Shown here: piece after piece, positions 9,893 to 22,064 of the stretch | How the letters are laid out: each line of letters opens with the position of its first letter | Numbering within the stretch: position 1 is the stretch's first letter | The notes under the pieces: generated by a model | Databases searched by the model: none | The model's input: the letters and a program-made list of their open reading frames with translations, nothing else | What the model was told of the DNA's origin: nothing | Assembly: GCA_003819755.1 (NCBI GenBank) | Contig: RPQK01000003.1 | Coordinates: 1-34,064 of the forward strand | Length of the DNA: 34,064 nt | Reading direction: 5' to 3' | DNA from: Acidobacteriota bacterium | GTDB lineage: Bacteria; Acidobacteriota; UBA6911; RPQK01 | Program-made: the position numbers and the translations under genes

Positions 9893-10537
9893 ATGGAGTT
9901 ACTTGTTGAAGAGGCGATTACGGAATACTCCGACAGGCATACGAGCGAGGTAAATCCCTTGCTCCGGGAGCTTCTGGCTGAGACAGAGGCGAGAACCGGG
10001 AAACTGGACTGGAGCATCGGGAAAGTCCAGGGTCAGTTCCTCAGAATGCTTGTCGGCTTGTCACAAGCGAAGTTCATTGTCGAGCTCGGAACTTTGACCG
10101 GCTTCTCCGCCTTGATCATGGCTGAAGCCTTGCCGCCGGACGGCCGTGTCCTCACCTGTGACAGCGACGCGGTGCACGCTGAGATCGCACGCAGTTTCTT
10201 TGCTCGAAGCCCACACGGGAAGAAGATCCAACTCGAGTTCGGGGATGCGATGAAATCGCTCTCCCGCATCCAGTCGGGGACCGTCGACGGGGTGTTTGTC
10301 GATGCGGATAAGGAGCAGTATCCAGGCTACTACGAAGAATCGCTGCGGGTTCTGAAGGTCGGAGGATGGATCGCGATAGACAACGTGCTGTGGGATGGAG
10401 AAGTGGTTGACCCCGAAAACAATGACCCGGACGTGACAGCCATCAAGCGGTTCAACGACAAAGTCCGTGAAGACAACCGGGTCGACAAAGTGATGCTGAC
10501 CATCCGGGACGGGATCTACCTGGTGCGAAAGCGGTGA
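9893..10537 (+). CDS. Class I SAM-dependent O-methyltransferase (caffeoyl-CoA OMT / Methyltransf_3 family)
   Basis: VELGTLTGFS SAM motif, FVDADK, IAIDNVLW and IRDG. Confidence 0.92.
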   Translation: MELLVEEAITEYSDRHTSEVNPLLRELLAETEARTGKLDWSIGKVQGQFLRMLVGLSQAKFIVELGTLTGFSALIMAEALPPDGRVLTCDSDAVHAEIARSFFARSPHGKKIQLEFGDAMKSLSRIQSGTVDGVFVDADKEQYPGYYEESLRVLKVGGWIAIDNVLWDGEVVDPENNDPDVTAIKRFNDKVREDNRVDKVMLTIRDGIYLVRKR

Positions 10538-10553: not shown

Positions 10554-10723
10554 GTGACAAGGTGACAAGGGACACAAGGGACAAGGGACAAGGGACAAGG
10601 GACAGAAGGGACAGAAGGGACAGAAGGGACACAAGCGAAAGCGACAACGCGATTCCCCGTCGCTGATGTCCCTTGTGTCCTTCTGTCCCTTCTGTCCCTT
10701 CTGTCCCTTGTGTCCCTCGTCAC
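10554..10723. repeat. Inverted AAGGGAC(AG/AC) microsatellite hairpin between convergent genes
   Basis: 7- and 9-bp AAGGGAC-based units at 10554-10635; GTCCCTT-based units at 10668-10717; abuts the stop codon at 10720. Confidence 0.9.
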
Positions 10724-11301
10724 TTCGGCGCGGGCTGTTCGACCCAGACGGACGCCTTCTTGGCCCAACTGGTGTCCTTGTACCTGGACTGGAACTGTCG
10801 GCCGGTTTCGGTCAGCGCGTTGCCATCGCCGGTGTCCTTGTATCTTGACACCCCGGTCCAATACAGAGCCTCGGGGGCCGCCTCCGAGCTCGGGAACTGT
10901 TCAACGACGGACTGAAATCGCTTTTCCGCGTCCTTGAACTGACCGTGAGAGAAAGCGAGTTTCGCGAGTCCGAGCTCTAACTGTGCCAGGAAATCATCCA
11001 CCGGGAGAAAACCTTCGAATCGATGTTGCTCCTTACCCTCTGAATCCAGAATGATCGCCGTCGGCGTCCATTGTGCGCCGAACCTCTGGAACATGTCGGG
11101 TTGTTCCTTCACGTGGATCTTGACGGGGACGAATTCCTGACTGATGTACTTGCGGACTCGGTCATTGGTGTAAACCTCGGCATCCAGCCGAGCGCATCCC
11201 GCTCACATCGGCGCGGCGCTGAAATCGAGCAGCACCGGCCGTTTGTTTTTGCGGGCCTCTGCCAAGGCAGAGTCGACGTTGCGATTCCAGTTTATTTCCA
11301 T
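10720..11301 (-). CDS. Thioredoxin-fold + TPR-like protein with in-frame UGA (UxxC), probable selenoprotein, 193 aa
   Basis: ATG at 11301 gives MEINWNRNVDSALAEARKNKRPVLLDFSAAPM-TGA(11205-11203)-AGCARLDAEVY..., in frame with the 10720..11112 ORF. Thioredoxin cis-Pro motif WTPT; C-terminal helical AAPEALYW. Confidence 0.85.
11176..11192 (-). promoter_or_regulatory. Candidate bacterial SECIS hairpin
   Basis: On the mRNA: UGA, 10 nt, then CUCGGC-UGGAU-GCCGAG (perfect 6-bp stem, G in the apical loop). Confidence 0.6.
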
Positions 11302-11362
11302 GCCACTAGTATTCTGCATAGTGGCACAAAGGGGAAGAGAACCGCCGAGCTTCGCCGCGACC

Positions 11363-11976
11363 CTACTTCTTTTCCGCGAGATCCTTCAGTACGCGGGTCA
11401 GGGTCTGGTTAAAGAGCTCGGGATTCTCGAGCATCGGGTAATGCCCCATATGCTTGAGAACGACGGCGTCGAAATCCCGGTAAACCTGCCGATTTGCCTC
11501 AATGTCCGTGGGAAACAGGTCTCCGTTGATGCAACGGATCGGGATAAGAAGTCCCTTCAAGGGGGCGGTGAAGTCATATGTCCCGAGGCTTTCCATTATT
11601 GACGCAGCCGTCTCGGGCTGGTTGTCCAGCATCTGCTTCTCCACCCATGCGTACAACTTGGGATCGGTGTCGGGATGCAAAAGCGCCCGCACCATCTTCT
11701 TCATTGTCGGCGTGAAATCGTCCCGAAAGGCTTTGGCCTGCTCTTTTGCCCAATTGGCCGGAGGTTTCTGGGCCAGGCTCTGAAGGCTGTCGACCGCAAT
11801 GACGGCCATGGCCCGCTTAGGCATGAGCCGGGTGGCTTGCAGGGCGACCGGACCACCCAGCGAATTGCCCAGGATGACCACCCGGCGCAGTCCCTCCTTT
11901 TCTACTACCGTCTGTACATCCTTCGCAAAGGGCACGATACCCCAAGCTTTCCGGTCAACAGGACCTTGGTTAACAT
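11363..11976 (-). pseudogene. Alpha/beta hydrolase gene with internal deletion/frameshift
   Basis: GGAGGAG SD + ATG at 11976 (MLTKVLL) is out of frame with the hydrolase body DRKAWGIVPFAKDV...GNSLGG...GHYPMLE. The N-terminal HG oxyanion and DLxGHG regions are absent, and an in-frame TGA lies at 12010-12008. Confidence 0.7.
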
Positions 11977-12067: not shown

Positions 12068-12125
12068 AAAGGGACACAAGGGACATGCGTCCGCCTGCTT
12101 TGTCGCTTGTGTCCCTTCTGTCCCT
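12068..12125. repeat. Short inverted AAGGGAC microsatellite hairpin
   Basis: AAAGGGACACAAGGGACA...TGTCGCTTGTGTCCCTTCTGTCCCT; overlaps the stop codon of the chemoreceptor gene; a reverse-oriented relative of 10554-10723. Confidence 0.8.
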
Positions 12126-15100
12126 ACTCCACCTTGAAAGTCCTGATTTGGCCTTGCAGGCCAGCCGTCATTTTTTGCAGCTGGTCCGCAGTGGCGGCGA
12201 CGTTCTGGGTTCCGGCGGCCACGTGCTCGGCGGTGGTGGCGATGGCCGACACGCTGCTGTTGATGTGCTCGGAGTTGCTTGAAAGCTGGTTGGCCGCTGT
12301 CGCCAGCTGCTCAATGCCGGCGACGACCTGCTGGGAGGCGCGTATGACCTCCTGCAAGGCCGAACCAGCCTGTAAGGTAAGCTCCCGCCCCTTGTCTGCC
12401 TCAGCGGTGCTGTTCGAGATCACCTGGGTGGTGGCCGCGATCCCCTCCTGTATTTTGATGATCGTCTGATTGATATCGCGCACCGACTGCCGGGTCCGTT
12501 CGGCCAGATTGCGGACCTCGTCTGCCACCACGGCGAAACCCTTGCCCGCTTCTCCGGCCCGGGCGGCTTCAACGGCGGCGTTGAGCGCCAGCAGATTGAT
12601 CTGAAAGGCGATGCTCTCGATCACGCTGACAATTTTGCCGATTGAAGAACTGCTCTCGTGGAGTCGTTCGACCAATGAGGATGTGTGACTGATATCGTCG
12701 GTCATTCGCCGCGTACTGTCGAGGGTTTGAGTGAGTACCCGGCCCCCGTCCTGGGCTGTCTCACCCGCCTGCCGGGCATTTTCAGAGGCAAGTGAAGCGC
12801 TTCGGCTGGTCTCCAGTATGGCACTCGACATCTCCTCGATCGCGGCGGATACGCTCTGGGCGTGCGCCGACTGTTCCTCCGAACCGGCCGCCATCTGCGT
12901 GGCATTCAGCAGCAGGGTTCCGCTCGCTTCCGCCGTTGTGTTGACGAGTTGGGTCACCGCCGCCAGCATCGTGCGGATATTGGCGACGGCCCGGTTGAGC
13001 CCGGCGATGAGACTCCCGATCTCGTCCTGGCGTTCCGCCTGAAGACAAATCGTGAGATCGCCGTTGGAGAACTTCTCGATTTCGGTGAGAATCCGGCTGA
13101 CATTACCCCGGAGGTAGGAATGGTTTCGCTCCAGTTCCTGCATGAGGCGGTCGCGTCCCTCCTCGGCCCGCTTCGTTGCGGCAATTTCGTCGTTCAGTTT
13201 GCGGTTGATCTTCTCCAGCCGCTGCCGGCGTCGTCGCGCGTTCAGAGTGATGGTGAAGACGACGGCGGTGACGGTGAGCCCCGCCAGGAGGCGGAACCAG
13301 AGAGTCGCCCAGAAGGGAGGGGCGATATGAAGGGCCACAGACGTGCCCTCTTCGTTCCAGTGGCCGTCGTTGTTTGAACCCCTCACTCGGAACACGTAAT
13401 CGCCTGGATCGATGTTCGTGTAGACTGCGGTCCGTTGAGCGCCCACATTGTTCCAGTCATTGTCAAATCCATCCAGCTTATAGGCGTACTGATTCCGTTC
13501 GGGGGCGGAGAAATCAAGCGCGGCAAATTCAAACGCGAAGGACGACTGGAGATAAGAAAGAGCGATTTCTTTCGTCTCGCTGATCTGTCGCCGAAGGATC
13601 GAGTCTTTGCCGACCGTTACGCTCTTGTTGCCGATCCTGAAATCGGTCAATAGGACGGCTGGTATCGCCTCGTTTTCGAGAATTCGGTCGGGATAAATGA
13701 GGTTGAAGCCGTTGTTGACCCCTCCCAGATAGACCGAGCCTTCTCGGGTGGTCATCGCGGCGGCTCGGTTGAACTCGCTACCAAGAATCCCGTCGGCCTT
13801 GGAGTAGATTCTCACCTGCCCGGATTTCGGGTCCAGCCGATACAGGCCTCTTCCTGTTCCGACCCACAAAAGTCCCTGCCGGTCCTTGGTCAGGCTGGTG
13901 ACTTCGCTGAGTGGCAGACTGGTTTGAACGGGAAGGAATTTGCCGCTGGCTTTCTCGAACCGGTCGAGTCCCTGGTCGGACGCCACGTAAAAAGTCCCCG
14001 GAGACATCTCCTCAACGGCTTGGACGTGATCGCCAGAGATGCTCGACCGGTTATTCTCATCGTGGCGATAAGAAGTCACTTTGTCGGTTCGTGGATCAAA
14101 AACAAGCAGCCCCGCCTCGGTCCCGACCAGAAACTGGCCTTCCGAGTCCTTGAAGACCAGGGTCGCGTGAAGGGTCGACGTCACGCGGGTGCTCCGGCCT
14201 GTGGCCGGATCGAAGACAACCAGGCCGTTCGGATTTGTGGCCAGGACCAGGCGACCCTTCAGATCCTCGTCTATGCCGAAAATGTTATTGTTGGGCAGGC
14301 TGCCGTTCTGGCGAGTGAAGTAACGGAAGGTATTCCGGTCGCGATCGTACAGGTTCAGGCCACCGTCCCATGTGCCTAACCAGAGGTTCCCTTTGCTGTC
14401 CTCAAAGGCCTCCAGAACTGCGTCACGGTTAAGTCCGCTGTTGCCTGTATTAAAGTGGGTAAAACTCCGGGTTCGGGGATTGAATCGGTCTAACCCTCCG
14501 CCGTCGGTGCAGACCCAGATGAAACCTTCGCGATCTTCCAGGAAATCAGTGACCGAGTTGTGGTTCAGGCTGTTAGCGTTACCGGGCACCTTGCTGAAGT
14601 GGAGGATCGCGTCCCCGTTCTTGCGGGTGATGTTGGCCCCGCCGGCGAAGGTTCCCGCCCAGATATCGCCAGACCGGTCCTGATGAATACAGTTGATTGA
14701 CTCGTGATTAAGACTGGAGGGATCGTTCGGATCGGCCCGGTAACGTTCGAACCTGCCGGTTTCGTAATCGTAGCGGCAGAGTCCGCCATTCTCGATGCCG
14801 ATCCAGACCTCGCCGCTTCGGTCCGCGTAAAGACAAAAAGCGTTGAGCCCGGCCAGTTCGTCCATTCGTTCAAACACCGGCTCTTGTCGGCCTAGATTGA
14901 ACCTCGAGACCCCTTCGCTCGATCCGACCCAGAGGTAGTTCCGCCCGTCCAGTGCCAGCTGAGTCAGATTGTTGCTTGGAAGGCTTGACGGATTGGAAGC
15001 ATCAGCCAGGAATCGAGTGGCGCGTTCGGATACGGGATCAAACCGGTTCAGGCCGCCGGCGGTCGCAACCCAGAGTCGCCCGGAACTTTCCGGGACAGCA

Positions 15101-15756
15101 AATCTGACCGTCCCTGCAGTCAGAGTGCTCGAATTGCTGGGATCGTGCCGAACTACCTTCGCCTGCCGGGTCGCAGGATCGAATCGAACGAGCCCGCCCT
15201 CCGTACAGAGCCAAAGGCGGCCGGCCGGGTCACCGGTTATGCAGTGCACGACTGGGCCTATCCCCTCGACCGGAGCAGCGTTCTTTTCCCCCAGCGAAGG
15301 GTCGGCAAAGTTGACGAAATCGTTTGTTTCGGGCTGGTAGAGGCTCAAACCAGCCTCTGTCCCGATCCAAAGTCGCTTTCGGTTGTCCTCGTACAAGCAG
15401 GTGATGTTGTTGTTGATTATGCTGTTGGGGCTATTCTGCCTCTGATACACGACGAAACGGTAGCCATCGTACCGGTCAAGCCCGTTGCCCGTACCCAGCC
15501 ACATGAAGCCCCGGCTGTCTTGGAGAAGCGCTCTGACCAGCGATTTCGACAACCCGTCTTCGGCCGTAAGGTGCCGGAACCGCAACGAGCGGGCTTCGAC
15601 AGTCAGACCTGCGAAGAAACAAACCAGAGTGGCAAGTGTGAGGAGCGGTGGCAGAACACCCGCGCTCCCGAGAGTAGCGCGCCCCCAGTGAGAAGACACA
15701 GCTTGACCCTCGGTGCTGGGGTTCCTCATGACCAGCAGATTATGTACGTTTGCCAC
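12124..15756 (-). CDS. Methyl-accepting chemotaxis protein with Reg_prop beta-propeller + Y_Y_Y sensor domain (start may be 15729)
   Basis: Many D-x-x-G-x-(L/I)W-x-GT-x-x-GL repeats; Y_Y_Y motif YAYKLDGFD...[13 protein letters not shown]; PPFW + TM helix; HAMP (GDLT...DEIG); MCP hairpin [37 protein letters not shown]. Confidence 0.9.
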
Positions 15757-21129: not shown

Positions 21130-22064
21130 GCCGTCCGCGTCGTGCGGGGCTCAGCGCATTTTCGGGCTCCGCCGCCCAAATGAAAGTCGATCCGGCTCTC
21201 GAGGTGGCGCAGGAAAGCCGTGTCCGCGGCGAAGATGTTGACGACCGAGTCCTGCATTCGGTCAAGAAGCGACTCTCCCTTGGTTAGATCAACCTCGACG
21301 TCATCGGCCCGGCCCCTCTGTCTCTTGTGAGCCTGACCCGCCTCAACCAGTACTTCCGCTGCCTGCCTGAGCTCTTCACGGCGGCCGCGGAACAGGCGAC
21401 GCATGGAGGTCCGAATGAAACGCGGGTCGGCCTCAGCCAGAGCCGACGATACGGCCTCATAGACCCTGACCTGAAGGTCGGCGCTCGAAAGGGTAGTCTG
21501 GGTGACCATACCGGTGCCGATCAGGTAGCGAACGGCGTGGCCCTCCGCAAACACTGAGACGGCCTGATCTGCGGCCGACTTGAGGCCAAGAATGAAGAAA
21601 ATCTTCCGAAAATAGCGACCTACGACGTAAAGGGTCACTGTCAGCGGCAGGAAGAGCAAATAGGCACAACCTTTCCCGAGTGCCCAGTCCCGCTGTCCCG
21701 CTGTTAGGACCTTCAATCCCCGCTGGTCGATCTGAAGCCGGCTGCCCTCCAGAATGTACCCGTACATGCGGCGGCGAACCAGGTTCAGAGTCCAATCATC
21801 CACAAAAGGAACCGGTATCAGGTAAGAAGCGCCTCCCAGCAGGCTGAACAAAGCCAGCCGCCGAGAGACGGGGTCGGTGGGAGTAACGCCTATCGTGACG
21901 GGTTTAGGGTGGGTTTCAGAAGGGACAGAAGGGACACAAGGGACACAAGGGACAGAAGGGACAGAAGGGACAGAAGGGACAGAAGGGACACGAGCTGCGG
22001 AGTCCCTTGGGTCCCTTGTGTCCCTTCTGTCCCTTGTGTCCCTTCTGTCCCTTGTGAAACCCAC
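21126..22064 (-). CDS. Hypothetical membrane-associated protein (start uncertain; reading frame runs through the repeat hairpin)
   Basis: Protein-like body from ~21870 (LIPVPFVDDW, hydrophobic helices). The only SD-supported start is GTG 22064 (GAGGAG), upstream of the 9-bp repeats. Confidence 0.6.
   Translation of the reverse strand: MGFTRDRRDTRDRRDTRDPRDSAARVPSVPSVPSVPSVPCVPCVPSVPSETHPKPVTIGVTPTDPVSRRLALFSLLGGASYLIPVPFVDDWTLNLVRRRMYGYILEGSRLQIDQRGLKVLTAGQRDWALGKGCAYLLFLPLTVTLYVVGRYFRKIFFILGLKSAADQAVSVFAEGHAVRYLIGTGMVTQTTLSSADLQVRVYEAVSSALAEADPRFIRTSMRRLFRGRREELRQAAEVLVEAGQAHKRQRGRADDVEVDLTKGESLLDRMQDSVVNIFAADTAFLRHLESRIDFHLGGGARKCAEPRTTRTA
21909..22064. repeat. Inverted 9-mer (AAGGGACAG/AAGGGACAC) microsatellite hairpin with outer stem GTGGGTTTCA/TGAAACCCAC
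   Basis: 8 AAGGGAC units at 9-bp spacing (21920-21989) and 6 GTCCCTT units (22002-22053). Confidence 0.95.

Follow-up and report, generated by a model that had tools for sequence, protein, structure and literature searches.

The window considered here is a stretch of 34,064 nucleotides from an Acidobacteriota bacterium (GTDB lineage Bacteria; Acidobacteriota; UBA6911; RPQK01; NCBI GenBank assembly GCA_003819755.1, contig RPQK01000003.1, positions 1 to 34,064 of the forward strand), and the subject of this analysis is a gene on its minus strand that carries an in-frame UGA codon followed closely by a hairpin. The full coding sequence (10723..11301, minus strand) comprises 193 codons, including the UGA at codon 33 (11203..11205), and is closed by a terminal TGA stop (10722-10720). 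The frame starts at an ATG (11301-11299) and is open on both sides of its single internal TGA. An initial annotation, made from the sequence alone, had traced this frame back to ATG 11301 through one TGA at 11205-11203, had noted that the open reading frame (ORF) track starts the gene only at 11112, and had proposed a 193-residue product that standard gene callers split. All of these coordinates were reproduced by translation: the mechanical ORF list begins the gene at GTG 11112 (130 aa), and the database protein for the window gene is even shorter (P0002, 124 aa). The UGA is read here as selenocysteine (Sec, U33), the leading residue of a UxxC motif within the local context PVLLDFSAAPM-U-AG-C-ARLDAEVY, and the codon of the presumed resolving residue Cys36 (11194..11196, minus strand) is invariant in 108/108 aligned family members. 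Across the family the motif takes the form (S/T/N)AAP(M)-U-x-G/A-C-ARL(D/E)AE, followed by a tail resembling tetratricopeptide repeats (TPR). Very probably, the gene encodes a genuine selenoprotein, a 193-residue thioredoxin-fold oxidoreductase with Sec33 as the attacking residue, for which both the insertion of selenium and the biochemical role are predicted. A cytoplasmic location is suggested by the absence of a hydrophobic N-terminus, which is polar, with no signal peptide or membrane segment seen on inspection by eye.

The protein is divided into a thioredoxin-fold domain (residues 1-100; 11002..11301, minus strand), whose nearest shape by Foldseek is the C-terminal domain of DsbD, and a helical TPR-like tail (residues 101-186; 10744..11001, minus strand). 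In a Pfam scan made with C in place of U, residues 3-108 matched Thioredoxin_2 (58.5 bits), Thioredoxin_7 (45.9), Thioredox_DsbH (42.1) and Thioredoxin (28.8), with PF13098 as the best match. The AlphaFold2 model, computed from 108 family sequences, forms one continuous fold of high confidence (predicted local distance difference test, pLDDT, 96.4; predicted template modelling score, pTM, 0.91), comprising an N-terminal helix, strands 23-28, 58-63, 81-85 and 91-96, and helices 34-43, 47-56 and 68-73, followed by tail helices 101-118, 122-135, 141-157, 161-172 and 178-186. U33 immediately precedes helix 34-43, in the position that the attacking Cys canonically takes in proteins with a thioredoxin fold, and a candidate cis-Pro is provided by Pro80 (codon 11064-11062, WTPT loop), which is invariant in 108/108 members and precedes strand 81-85. 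A Foldseek search of the PDB gave 224 matches at E <= 0.001, and the top matches listed are almost all thioredoxin-fold proteins. The front part of the family profile likewise matches PDB sequences of this kind (2kuc, 4.8e-13; DsbD-gamma, 2.5e-10). Thus, the thioredoxin fold proposed in the initial annotation, with the TGA at the first Cys of a CxxC motif, is borne out by the Pfam matches, the model, the fold search and the invariant Cys36. For the TPR-like tail, also proposed there, the agreement is partial. Profile positions 113-185 match YbgF (2xev, 5e-12) and CpoB (6g5s, 1.2e-9), the NCBIfam model tol_pal_ybgF is matched below its cut-off by 92/108 members, and the modelled tail is helical, but the Pfam TPR matches of the single sequence (residues 102-156) stay below the gathering threshold (TPR_16, 23.6 versus 32.7 bits).

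Conservation of the UGA codon and its hairpin

The UGA column was followed across homologous DNA from related genomes, metagenomes and phylum-wide samples. Pooling gave 105 loci, which yielded 104 usable 65-codon stretches and 102 distinct sequences, at most two of them from unpublished genomes (G007, G182). The column is TGA in 101 of these 102 sequences, CGA in one and TGG in none. Among related genomes, all 8/8 orthologues (G000-G005, G007, G033) carry TGA, including two that are only 32-33% identical to the window protein. Metagenome contigs were scanned with patterns that did not include the TGA column, and TGA was found there in 80/80 loci (78 by pattern, and L058 and L066 by inspection); at least 567 metagenome stretches were confirmed for the family. 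From the window's phylum, 401 genomes were sampled evenly and searched at a cut-off of E <= 1e-20; the gene is present in 26 of them with 27 matches, and the column is TGA in 26 of these matches and CGA in the remaining one. In a second phylum, 14 of 201 sampled genomes match, two of the 14 being unpublished (G475, G575); a TGA is contained in 14/14, with the column itself checked only for G418/L022, the genome of an uncultured Gemmatimonadaceae bacterium. A scan of genome contigs with a single protein returned 3 loci, one of them an orthologue. Together with two database proteins that carry Cys at the column (P0007, P0010), these counts answer the question of which residues homologues hold there, to which the initial annotation had pointed as a check.

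The single CGA (Arg) orthologue (L147, in genome G206) corresponds to the protein P0012. In this orthologue a single base separates the codon from TGA, the hairpin is encoded by unchanged codons and selA is retained in the genome; in a metagenome relative that is nearly identical (L124), the column is TGA. This copy, and a protein with Ser at the column (P0011), may be recently inactivated copies or errors.

A stop codon inside a frame could also have arisen in a decaying gene, by nonsense mutation or through an error of assembly, and the bare presence of the codon speaks for this. That explanation is effectively refuted by the recurrence of TGA at the same column in 101/102 distinct homologues and by a frame that is intact on both sides of it. 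A Logan contig from sequencing run X1 is also identical to the window over 10688-11344; X1 is possibly the source sample, and thus does not count as independent support.

The region upstream of the TGA bears the signature of coding sequence. In the 102 sequences, the first two codon positions are conserved and variation falls on the third, and the 32 codons that precede the TGA are conserved in two phyla with a protein-coding pattern of substitution.

Downstream of the TGA, the stem and loop described in the initial annotation (a perfect CUCGGC/GCCGAG stem with a UGGAU loop, 10 nt past the UGA) were confirmed at 11192-11176. This hairpin (11176..11192, minus strand), which resembles a selenocysteine insertion sequence (SECIS), consists of a 6-bp stem, CUCGGC (11192-11187) paired with GCCGAG (11181-11176), enclosing the loop UGGAU (11186-11182), and spans codons 37-42 (ARLDAE). 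In a recent inventory (PMC13188914), bacterial SECIS (bSECIS) elements are described by a loop of 3-9 nt, a stem of 4-16 bp, a G among the first two loop nucleotides, a UGA-to-loop distance of 16-37 nt and a minimum free energy (MFE) of <= -7.5 kcal/mol. The window hairpin agrees with every one of these values (loop of 5 nt beginning UGG, stem of 6 bp, distance of 16 nt, MFE of -10.0 kcal/mol), as the comparison with bacterial SECIS elements suggested in the initial annotation would have it, with the spacing at the edge of the range.

Judging from the comparison of homologues, the hairpin is under selection at the RNA level. Third-position entropy, computed on the 102 sequences, is close to zero in the stem codons: 0.28 bits at codon +4 (GCU), 0 bits at both +5 (CGG) and +6 (CUG), and 0.08 bits at both +8 (GCC) and +9 (GAG). 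By comparison, it is 1.46 bits in the loop codon +7 (GAN), and 1.28, 1.89 and 1.30 bits in the invariant residues Ala-4, Ala-3 and Pro-2, respectively. Arg is encoded by CGG and Leu by CUG in the stem of every sequence, despite six possible codons for each. Pairing was tested in 95 distinct sequences, with unpublished genomes left out: 99.3% of 570 cells are paired in the stem, versus 26-48% when the partner is slid by 1-3 columns. At pairs 14/30 or 17/27, base changes occur in two sequences only, and in both the partner has changed as well. In L058, a G-C pair has become A-U, with an Arg-to-Gln change matched by a synonymous GCC-to-GCU change, and in L152 a C-G pair has become U-A through a compensatory change. 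None of 500 shuffles reached 2 compensatory events. In addition, contigs from three unrelated soil runs, which match the window only over about 11170-11236, differ from it at 11197, 11200, 11201 and 11206-11208, and not in the UGA or the stem, bearing in mind that rare variants can be masked in contigs.

A more distant clade (30-36% identity, motif xPG-U-xGC...MDAVTYP) provides a second arrangement. The column is TGA in 8/8 members, and a different hairpin, UGGAUGC-N(4-6)-GUAUCCA, lies about 19 nt downstream and is folded in 7/8 members. It is partly broken in L157 and gives no fold in L161, and L158 shows a compensatory change from A-U to G-C in its stem.

These patterns bear on a further explanation, in which translation ends at the UGA, initiation at an internal site yields the real product of about 124-150 aa, and the 32 codons upstream give a separate peptide or none. 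The database records would favor such a product, as would the mechanical ORF list with its start at 11112. In a protein search that returned 3182 proteins at E <= 0.001, the column was examined in the best 120, of which 102 are cut at the UGA and 18 are full length. The truncated proteins nevertheless begin at varied residues past the column and with different start codons, so no conserved internal start is apparent. Ending translation at the UGA would furthermore deprive the fold modelled above of strand beta1 and of the active-site turn, and would leave the coding pattern of the upstream codons unaccounted for. A gene boundary would not be expected to keep its stop codon at one column in 101/102 sequences and to be followed by a hairpin under selection, and this short product is considered extremely unlikely.

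Decoding machinery and database records

The initial annotation had implied that the machinery for selenocysteine would be encoded elsewhere in the genome, and this has been borne out for selA and selD only. The genome contains selA (549 bits) and selD (366 bits; contig C164:6270-7190, L010). The selD frame itself carries one in-frame TGA, within AG-U-AS-K, at a position which we take to be that of the catalytic Cys/Sec of SelD, followed by a hairpin of its own with a GGA loop. Since selD has such a codon itself, the genome holds at least two Sec-type genes. Among the 26 genomes of the phylum sample that carry the window gene, all 26 contain selA, versus 299/401 in the sample overall; because relatives are not independent, no probability is attached to this co-occurrence. 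A complete set of selB (354 bits) and tRNA-Sec(UCA) is present in a genome of the same genus (G002), a selB fragment lies at a contig end in G001, tRNA-Sec is present in G003, G004 and G005, and selB is also present in the Gemmatimonadaceae genome mentioned above.

Several observations weigh against selenocysteine insertion at this codon. In the window's own assembly (953 contigs, 91% complete), selB was not found with TIGR00475, the best match being EF-Tu-like (209 bits, below the cut-off) and the matches being read by eye from their sequences as EF-Tu, CysN, IF-2, TypA, LepA and EF-G. Neither of the SelB wing domains (PF09106, PF09107) was found there. For tRNA-Sec, the Rfam model RF01852 gave tRNA-Ser as its top matches, and ARAGORN, run on all 953 contigs, returned no tRNA-Sec; searches of the assembly by tblastn and blastn with SelB and tRNA-Sec of G002 gave no match. 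Two genomes of the same family (G003, G004) carry a TGA orthologue and tRNA-Sec(UCA), with no selB above the cut-off. Among the database proteins, 14 have W at the Sec column, for which an artefact of gene calling, set out below, is the probable explanation. As for the hairpin, its spacing of 16 nt lies at the lower limit of the published range, and a fold of the single sequence over a 61-nt region is unexceptional (z = -0.14; 85/200 shuffles fold at least as well). Its U-A pair 15/29 is broken in 4/95 sequences, and, with a stem that is almost invariant, the covariation rests on only two events.

The absence of selB and tRNA-Sec cannot be concluded from an assembly that is 91% complete and whose tRNA set is visibly incomplete: ARAGORN reports 41 tRNAs, none of them for Trp, Asn or Ile. 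(The same run labels one tRNA as Asp with the unusual anticodon ATC, possibly a mis-call.) Nor was selB found beside selA on contig C85, where selA is followed by a convergent 673-aa frame that is RNase R-like by eye. In G003 and G004, selB either falls in a gap or is divergent. The best matches of the selB search in these two genomes score about 190-205 bits and are EF-Tu-like, and the assembly of G004 comprises no more than about 30 contigs.

The 18 full-length proteins among the best 120 have W at the column in 14 cases, C in 2, S in 1 and R in 1. All of the W proteins come from JGI (P0004, P0006, P0008, P0014, P0018, P0028, P0029, P0035, P0036, P0044, P0051, P0053, P0058 and P0075). The initial annotation had named Trp at this column as a finding that would speak against a selenoprotein. 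No TGG was found in any of the DNA examined, and for the W proteins an artefact is inferred: 0/14 match a fetched locus exactly (best, 88% identical), but in the DNA of their closest relatives, with identities of up to 88%, the column is TGA, and so the W calls are taken as the result of a gene caller reading TGA under a Trp code, probably applied to short contigs. Family members from NCBI sources are named ‘thioredoxin fold domain-containing protein’ or ‘tetratricopeptide repeat protein’.

The same evidence has to be set against a reading in which the UGA is passed without selenocysteine, a near-cognate or suppressor tRNA inserting Trp, Cys or another residue and the hairpin acting as a general stimulator of read-through. 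Such decoding would be in keeping with the searches for selB and tRNA-Sec that found neither in the assembly to which the window belongs, with the TGA orthologues of G003 and G004 that lack a selB above the cut-off, and with the 14 database calls of W. It would not account for a selD that itself carries Sec beside selA, for selA in every one of the 26 carrier genomes, for the complete selB and tRNA-Sec in the same genus, or for a hairpin that conforms to SelB-type bSECIS elements. The column is moreover the position of a catalytic Cys, at which true Cys forms exist and for which no homologue DNA has TGG, and release factor RF2 is present (prfB, 518.9 bits versus a cut-off of 370). Read-through of this kind is therefore regarded as very unlikely, and decoding of the UGA as selenocysteine is retained as the preferred reading. 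Genome-wide reassignment of TGA was likewise rejected, because the genome encodes RF2 and because TGA is the most frequent stop in the window: it closes 16 of the 25 open frames with >=250 aa (some of them spurious), and it closes the window gene as well.

Genomic context

The gene is flanked upstream by an alpha/beta-hydrolase fragment on the same strand (11363-11935) and downstream by a convergent O-methyltransferase (9893-10537). A conserved gene neighbourhood was not found, the largest cluster of similar flanking frames comprising 7 of about 105 loci, which is the most that any neighbouring gene reaches. The gene seems to be a solitary one, and the context gives no clue to function.

Immediately past the stop codon, before the convergent O-methyltransferase is reached, lies a long palindrome of tandem 9-nt units, GGGACAGAA, and their complement (10599..10718, no strand assigned), which is probably a terminator-like or repeat element. 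The GGGACAGAA palindrome element also occurs near 12110 and at 21922-22037, and a 15-nt piece of its motif has 155 occurrences on 62 contigs of the genome. Orthologues have other long palindromes at the same place after the gene. Many other contigs of run X1 pile up on this element. A scan of the whole window against Rfam at gathering thresholds gave 0 matches.

Before the ATG, the window gene (11302-11316) and four close orthologues (L026, L027, L028, L045) share the motif (A/G)ATACT(A/T) about 7-12 nt upstream, with no obvious Shine-Dalgarno sequence. The motif could act as a -10 box if the mRNA is leaderless or nearly so. In the window gene the start codon is covered by a 12-bp hairpin, but this was discarded as a candidate element, as it is not conserved in these four orthologues. 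Elsewhere in the window, a minus-strand frame of 1210 residues (12124-15756) combines ‘two-component regulator propeller’ repeats with Y_Y_Y, HAMP and methyl-accepting chemotaxis signalling domains, in what seemed an unusual sensor architecture.

Proposed mechanism and comparison with known systems

If the UGA is decoded as selenocysteine, the course of events may be pictured as follows. The UGA at 11205-11203 would not be read as a stop during translation; instead, the hairpin within the ARLDAE codons, 10 nt past the UGA, would recruit SelB together with Sec-tRNA(Sec), leading to the insertion of Sec. By analogy with thioredoxin-fold proteins generally, Sec33, at the N-terminus of helix alpha1, would attack a substrate disulfide or other oxidised sulfur to form a mixed selenosulfide, which Cys36 would resolve to an internal Se-S bond, to be reduced in turn by a reductase system. 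The C-terminal TPR-like helical domain would probably provide the surface on which a partner or client protein docks.

Taken together, the observations allow a more far-reaching, and as a whole doubtful, proposal. In this proposal, the window gene belongs to an uncatalogued selenoprotein family that combines a DsbD-gamma-like thioredoxin domain with a CpoB-like TPR tail, is common in soil and sediment bacteria of the Acidobacteriota and Gemmatimonadota types, and is almost wholly Sec-dependent, with Cys forms being rare. Its members might act as seleno-‘chaperedoxins’, the tail holding clients while Sec33 forms reversible mixed selenosulfides, and the 17-nt SECIS would fix the ARL(D/E)AE sequence of helix alpha1. 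Whether or not this proposal holds, the family is widespread in soil bacteria, uses Sec almost without exception and occurs in 26/401 and 14/201 sampled genomes of the two phyla, and might therefore serve to indicate the selenium demand of such bacteria. A profile for the family would correct thousands of records. A small, near-invariant SECIS inside an active-site helix also offers a clean natural case of mutual constraint between SECIS and protein sequence, to which the distant clade adds by having its hairpin shifted about 6 nt downstream, onto other codons.

Selenoproteins of the UxxC type with a thioredoxin fold are already a well-known kind. According to two sources (PMC13188914, PMC13326102), more than 100 bacterial selenoprotein families are known, most of them thioredoxin-like, and the former (2026) includes many thioredoxin-fold UxxC selenoproteins, among them a PF13098 class of ‘thiol:disulfide interchange protein’. 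The window family shares with these proteins (the PF13098 class and the NCBIfam families VPGUxxT, Trx7/PDZ and TsoB) the predicted replacement of the first Cys by Sec at the start of helix alpha1 and decoding by a hairpin just 3' of the UGA. With the PF13098 class it also shares the best Pfam match, and the two may be identical. Similarity to NF045694, NF041383 and NF041199 is weak but consistent. In a scan of all 108 family members against NCBIfam release 20.0, 0/108 came near any curated cut-off (e.g. 54 versus 805 bits, or 43.7 versus 275); for VPGUxxT types 1 and 2, the window protein scores 43.7 and 36.8 bits versus cut-offs of 275 and 350, and the best E-value of any member is 1.9e-13 (type 2). 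The terms TPR, tetratricopeptide, DUF255, PF13899 and PF03190 do not occur in the portion of PMC13188914 that was available, and no thioredoxin-plus-TPR selenoprotein family was found in the literature searched, as far as its accessible text extends, so that an earlier description may exist. Novelty at the family level is plausible but unproven.

The best structural match is the C-terminal (gamma) domain of DsbD (2fwg, 1uc7 and 1vrs; template modelling (TM) score 0.73-0.78 on target, root-mean-square deviation (rmsd) 2.0-2.7 A over about 118 columns), with DsbH (2ju5) close behind in Foldseek. For 2fwg and 1uc7 the values are 0.75 on target and 2.0-2.4 A. DsbD-gamma relies on Cys and forms the periplasmic end of a larger protein set in the membrane, whereas the window protein is standalone, is predicted to use Sec and carries a TPR-like tail. 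With 193 residues, no membrane part and a score of 35.6 bits versus a cut-off of 330 for NF001419, it does not belong to DsbD.

In terms of domain composition, the closest parallel is the ‘chaperedoxin’ CnoX/YbbN, which has the same two kinds of domain in the same order, is also cytoplasmic and appears in the fold search (3qou, 3qdn); one database source names a family member after it. E. coli YbbN is not known to have a CxxC motif. Global superposition on CnoX/YbbN is poor (rmsd 10.9-11.8 A, TM 0.41-0.44 on query), and the tail of the window protein, of about 85 residues, is CpoB/YbgF-like rather than like the TPR of YbbN. The identification as CnoX/YbbN was rejected on these two grounds, and the likeness holds at the level of domain type only.

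The tail itself is closest to the C-terminal TPR of CpoB (YbgF) and to BamD: profile positions 113-185 match BamD chains in addition to 2xev and 6g5s, and the family matches the NCBIfam models TIGR02795 and TIGR03302 below their cut-offs. CpoB and BamD belong to the Tol-Pal and Bam systems and are located in the periplasm or outer membrane, whereas the window protein is without an export signal and has its tail fused to a redox domain.

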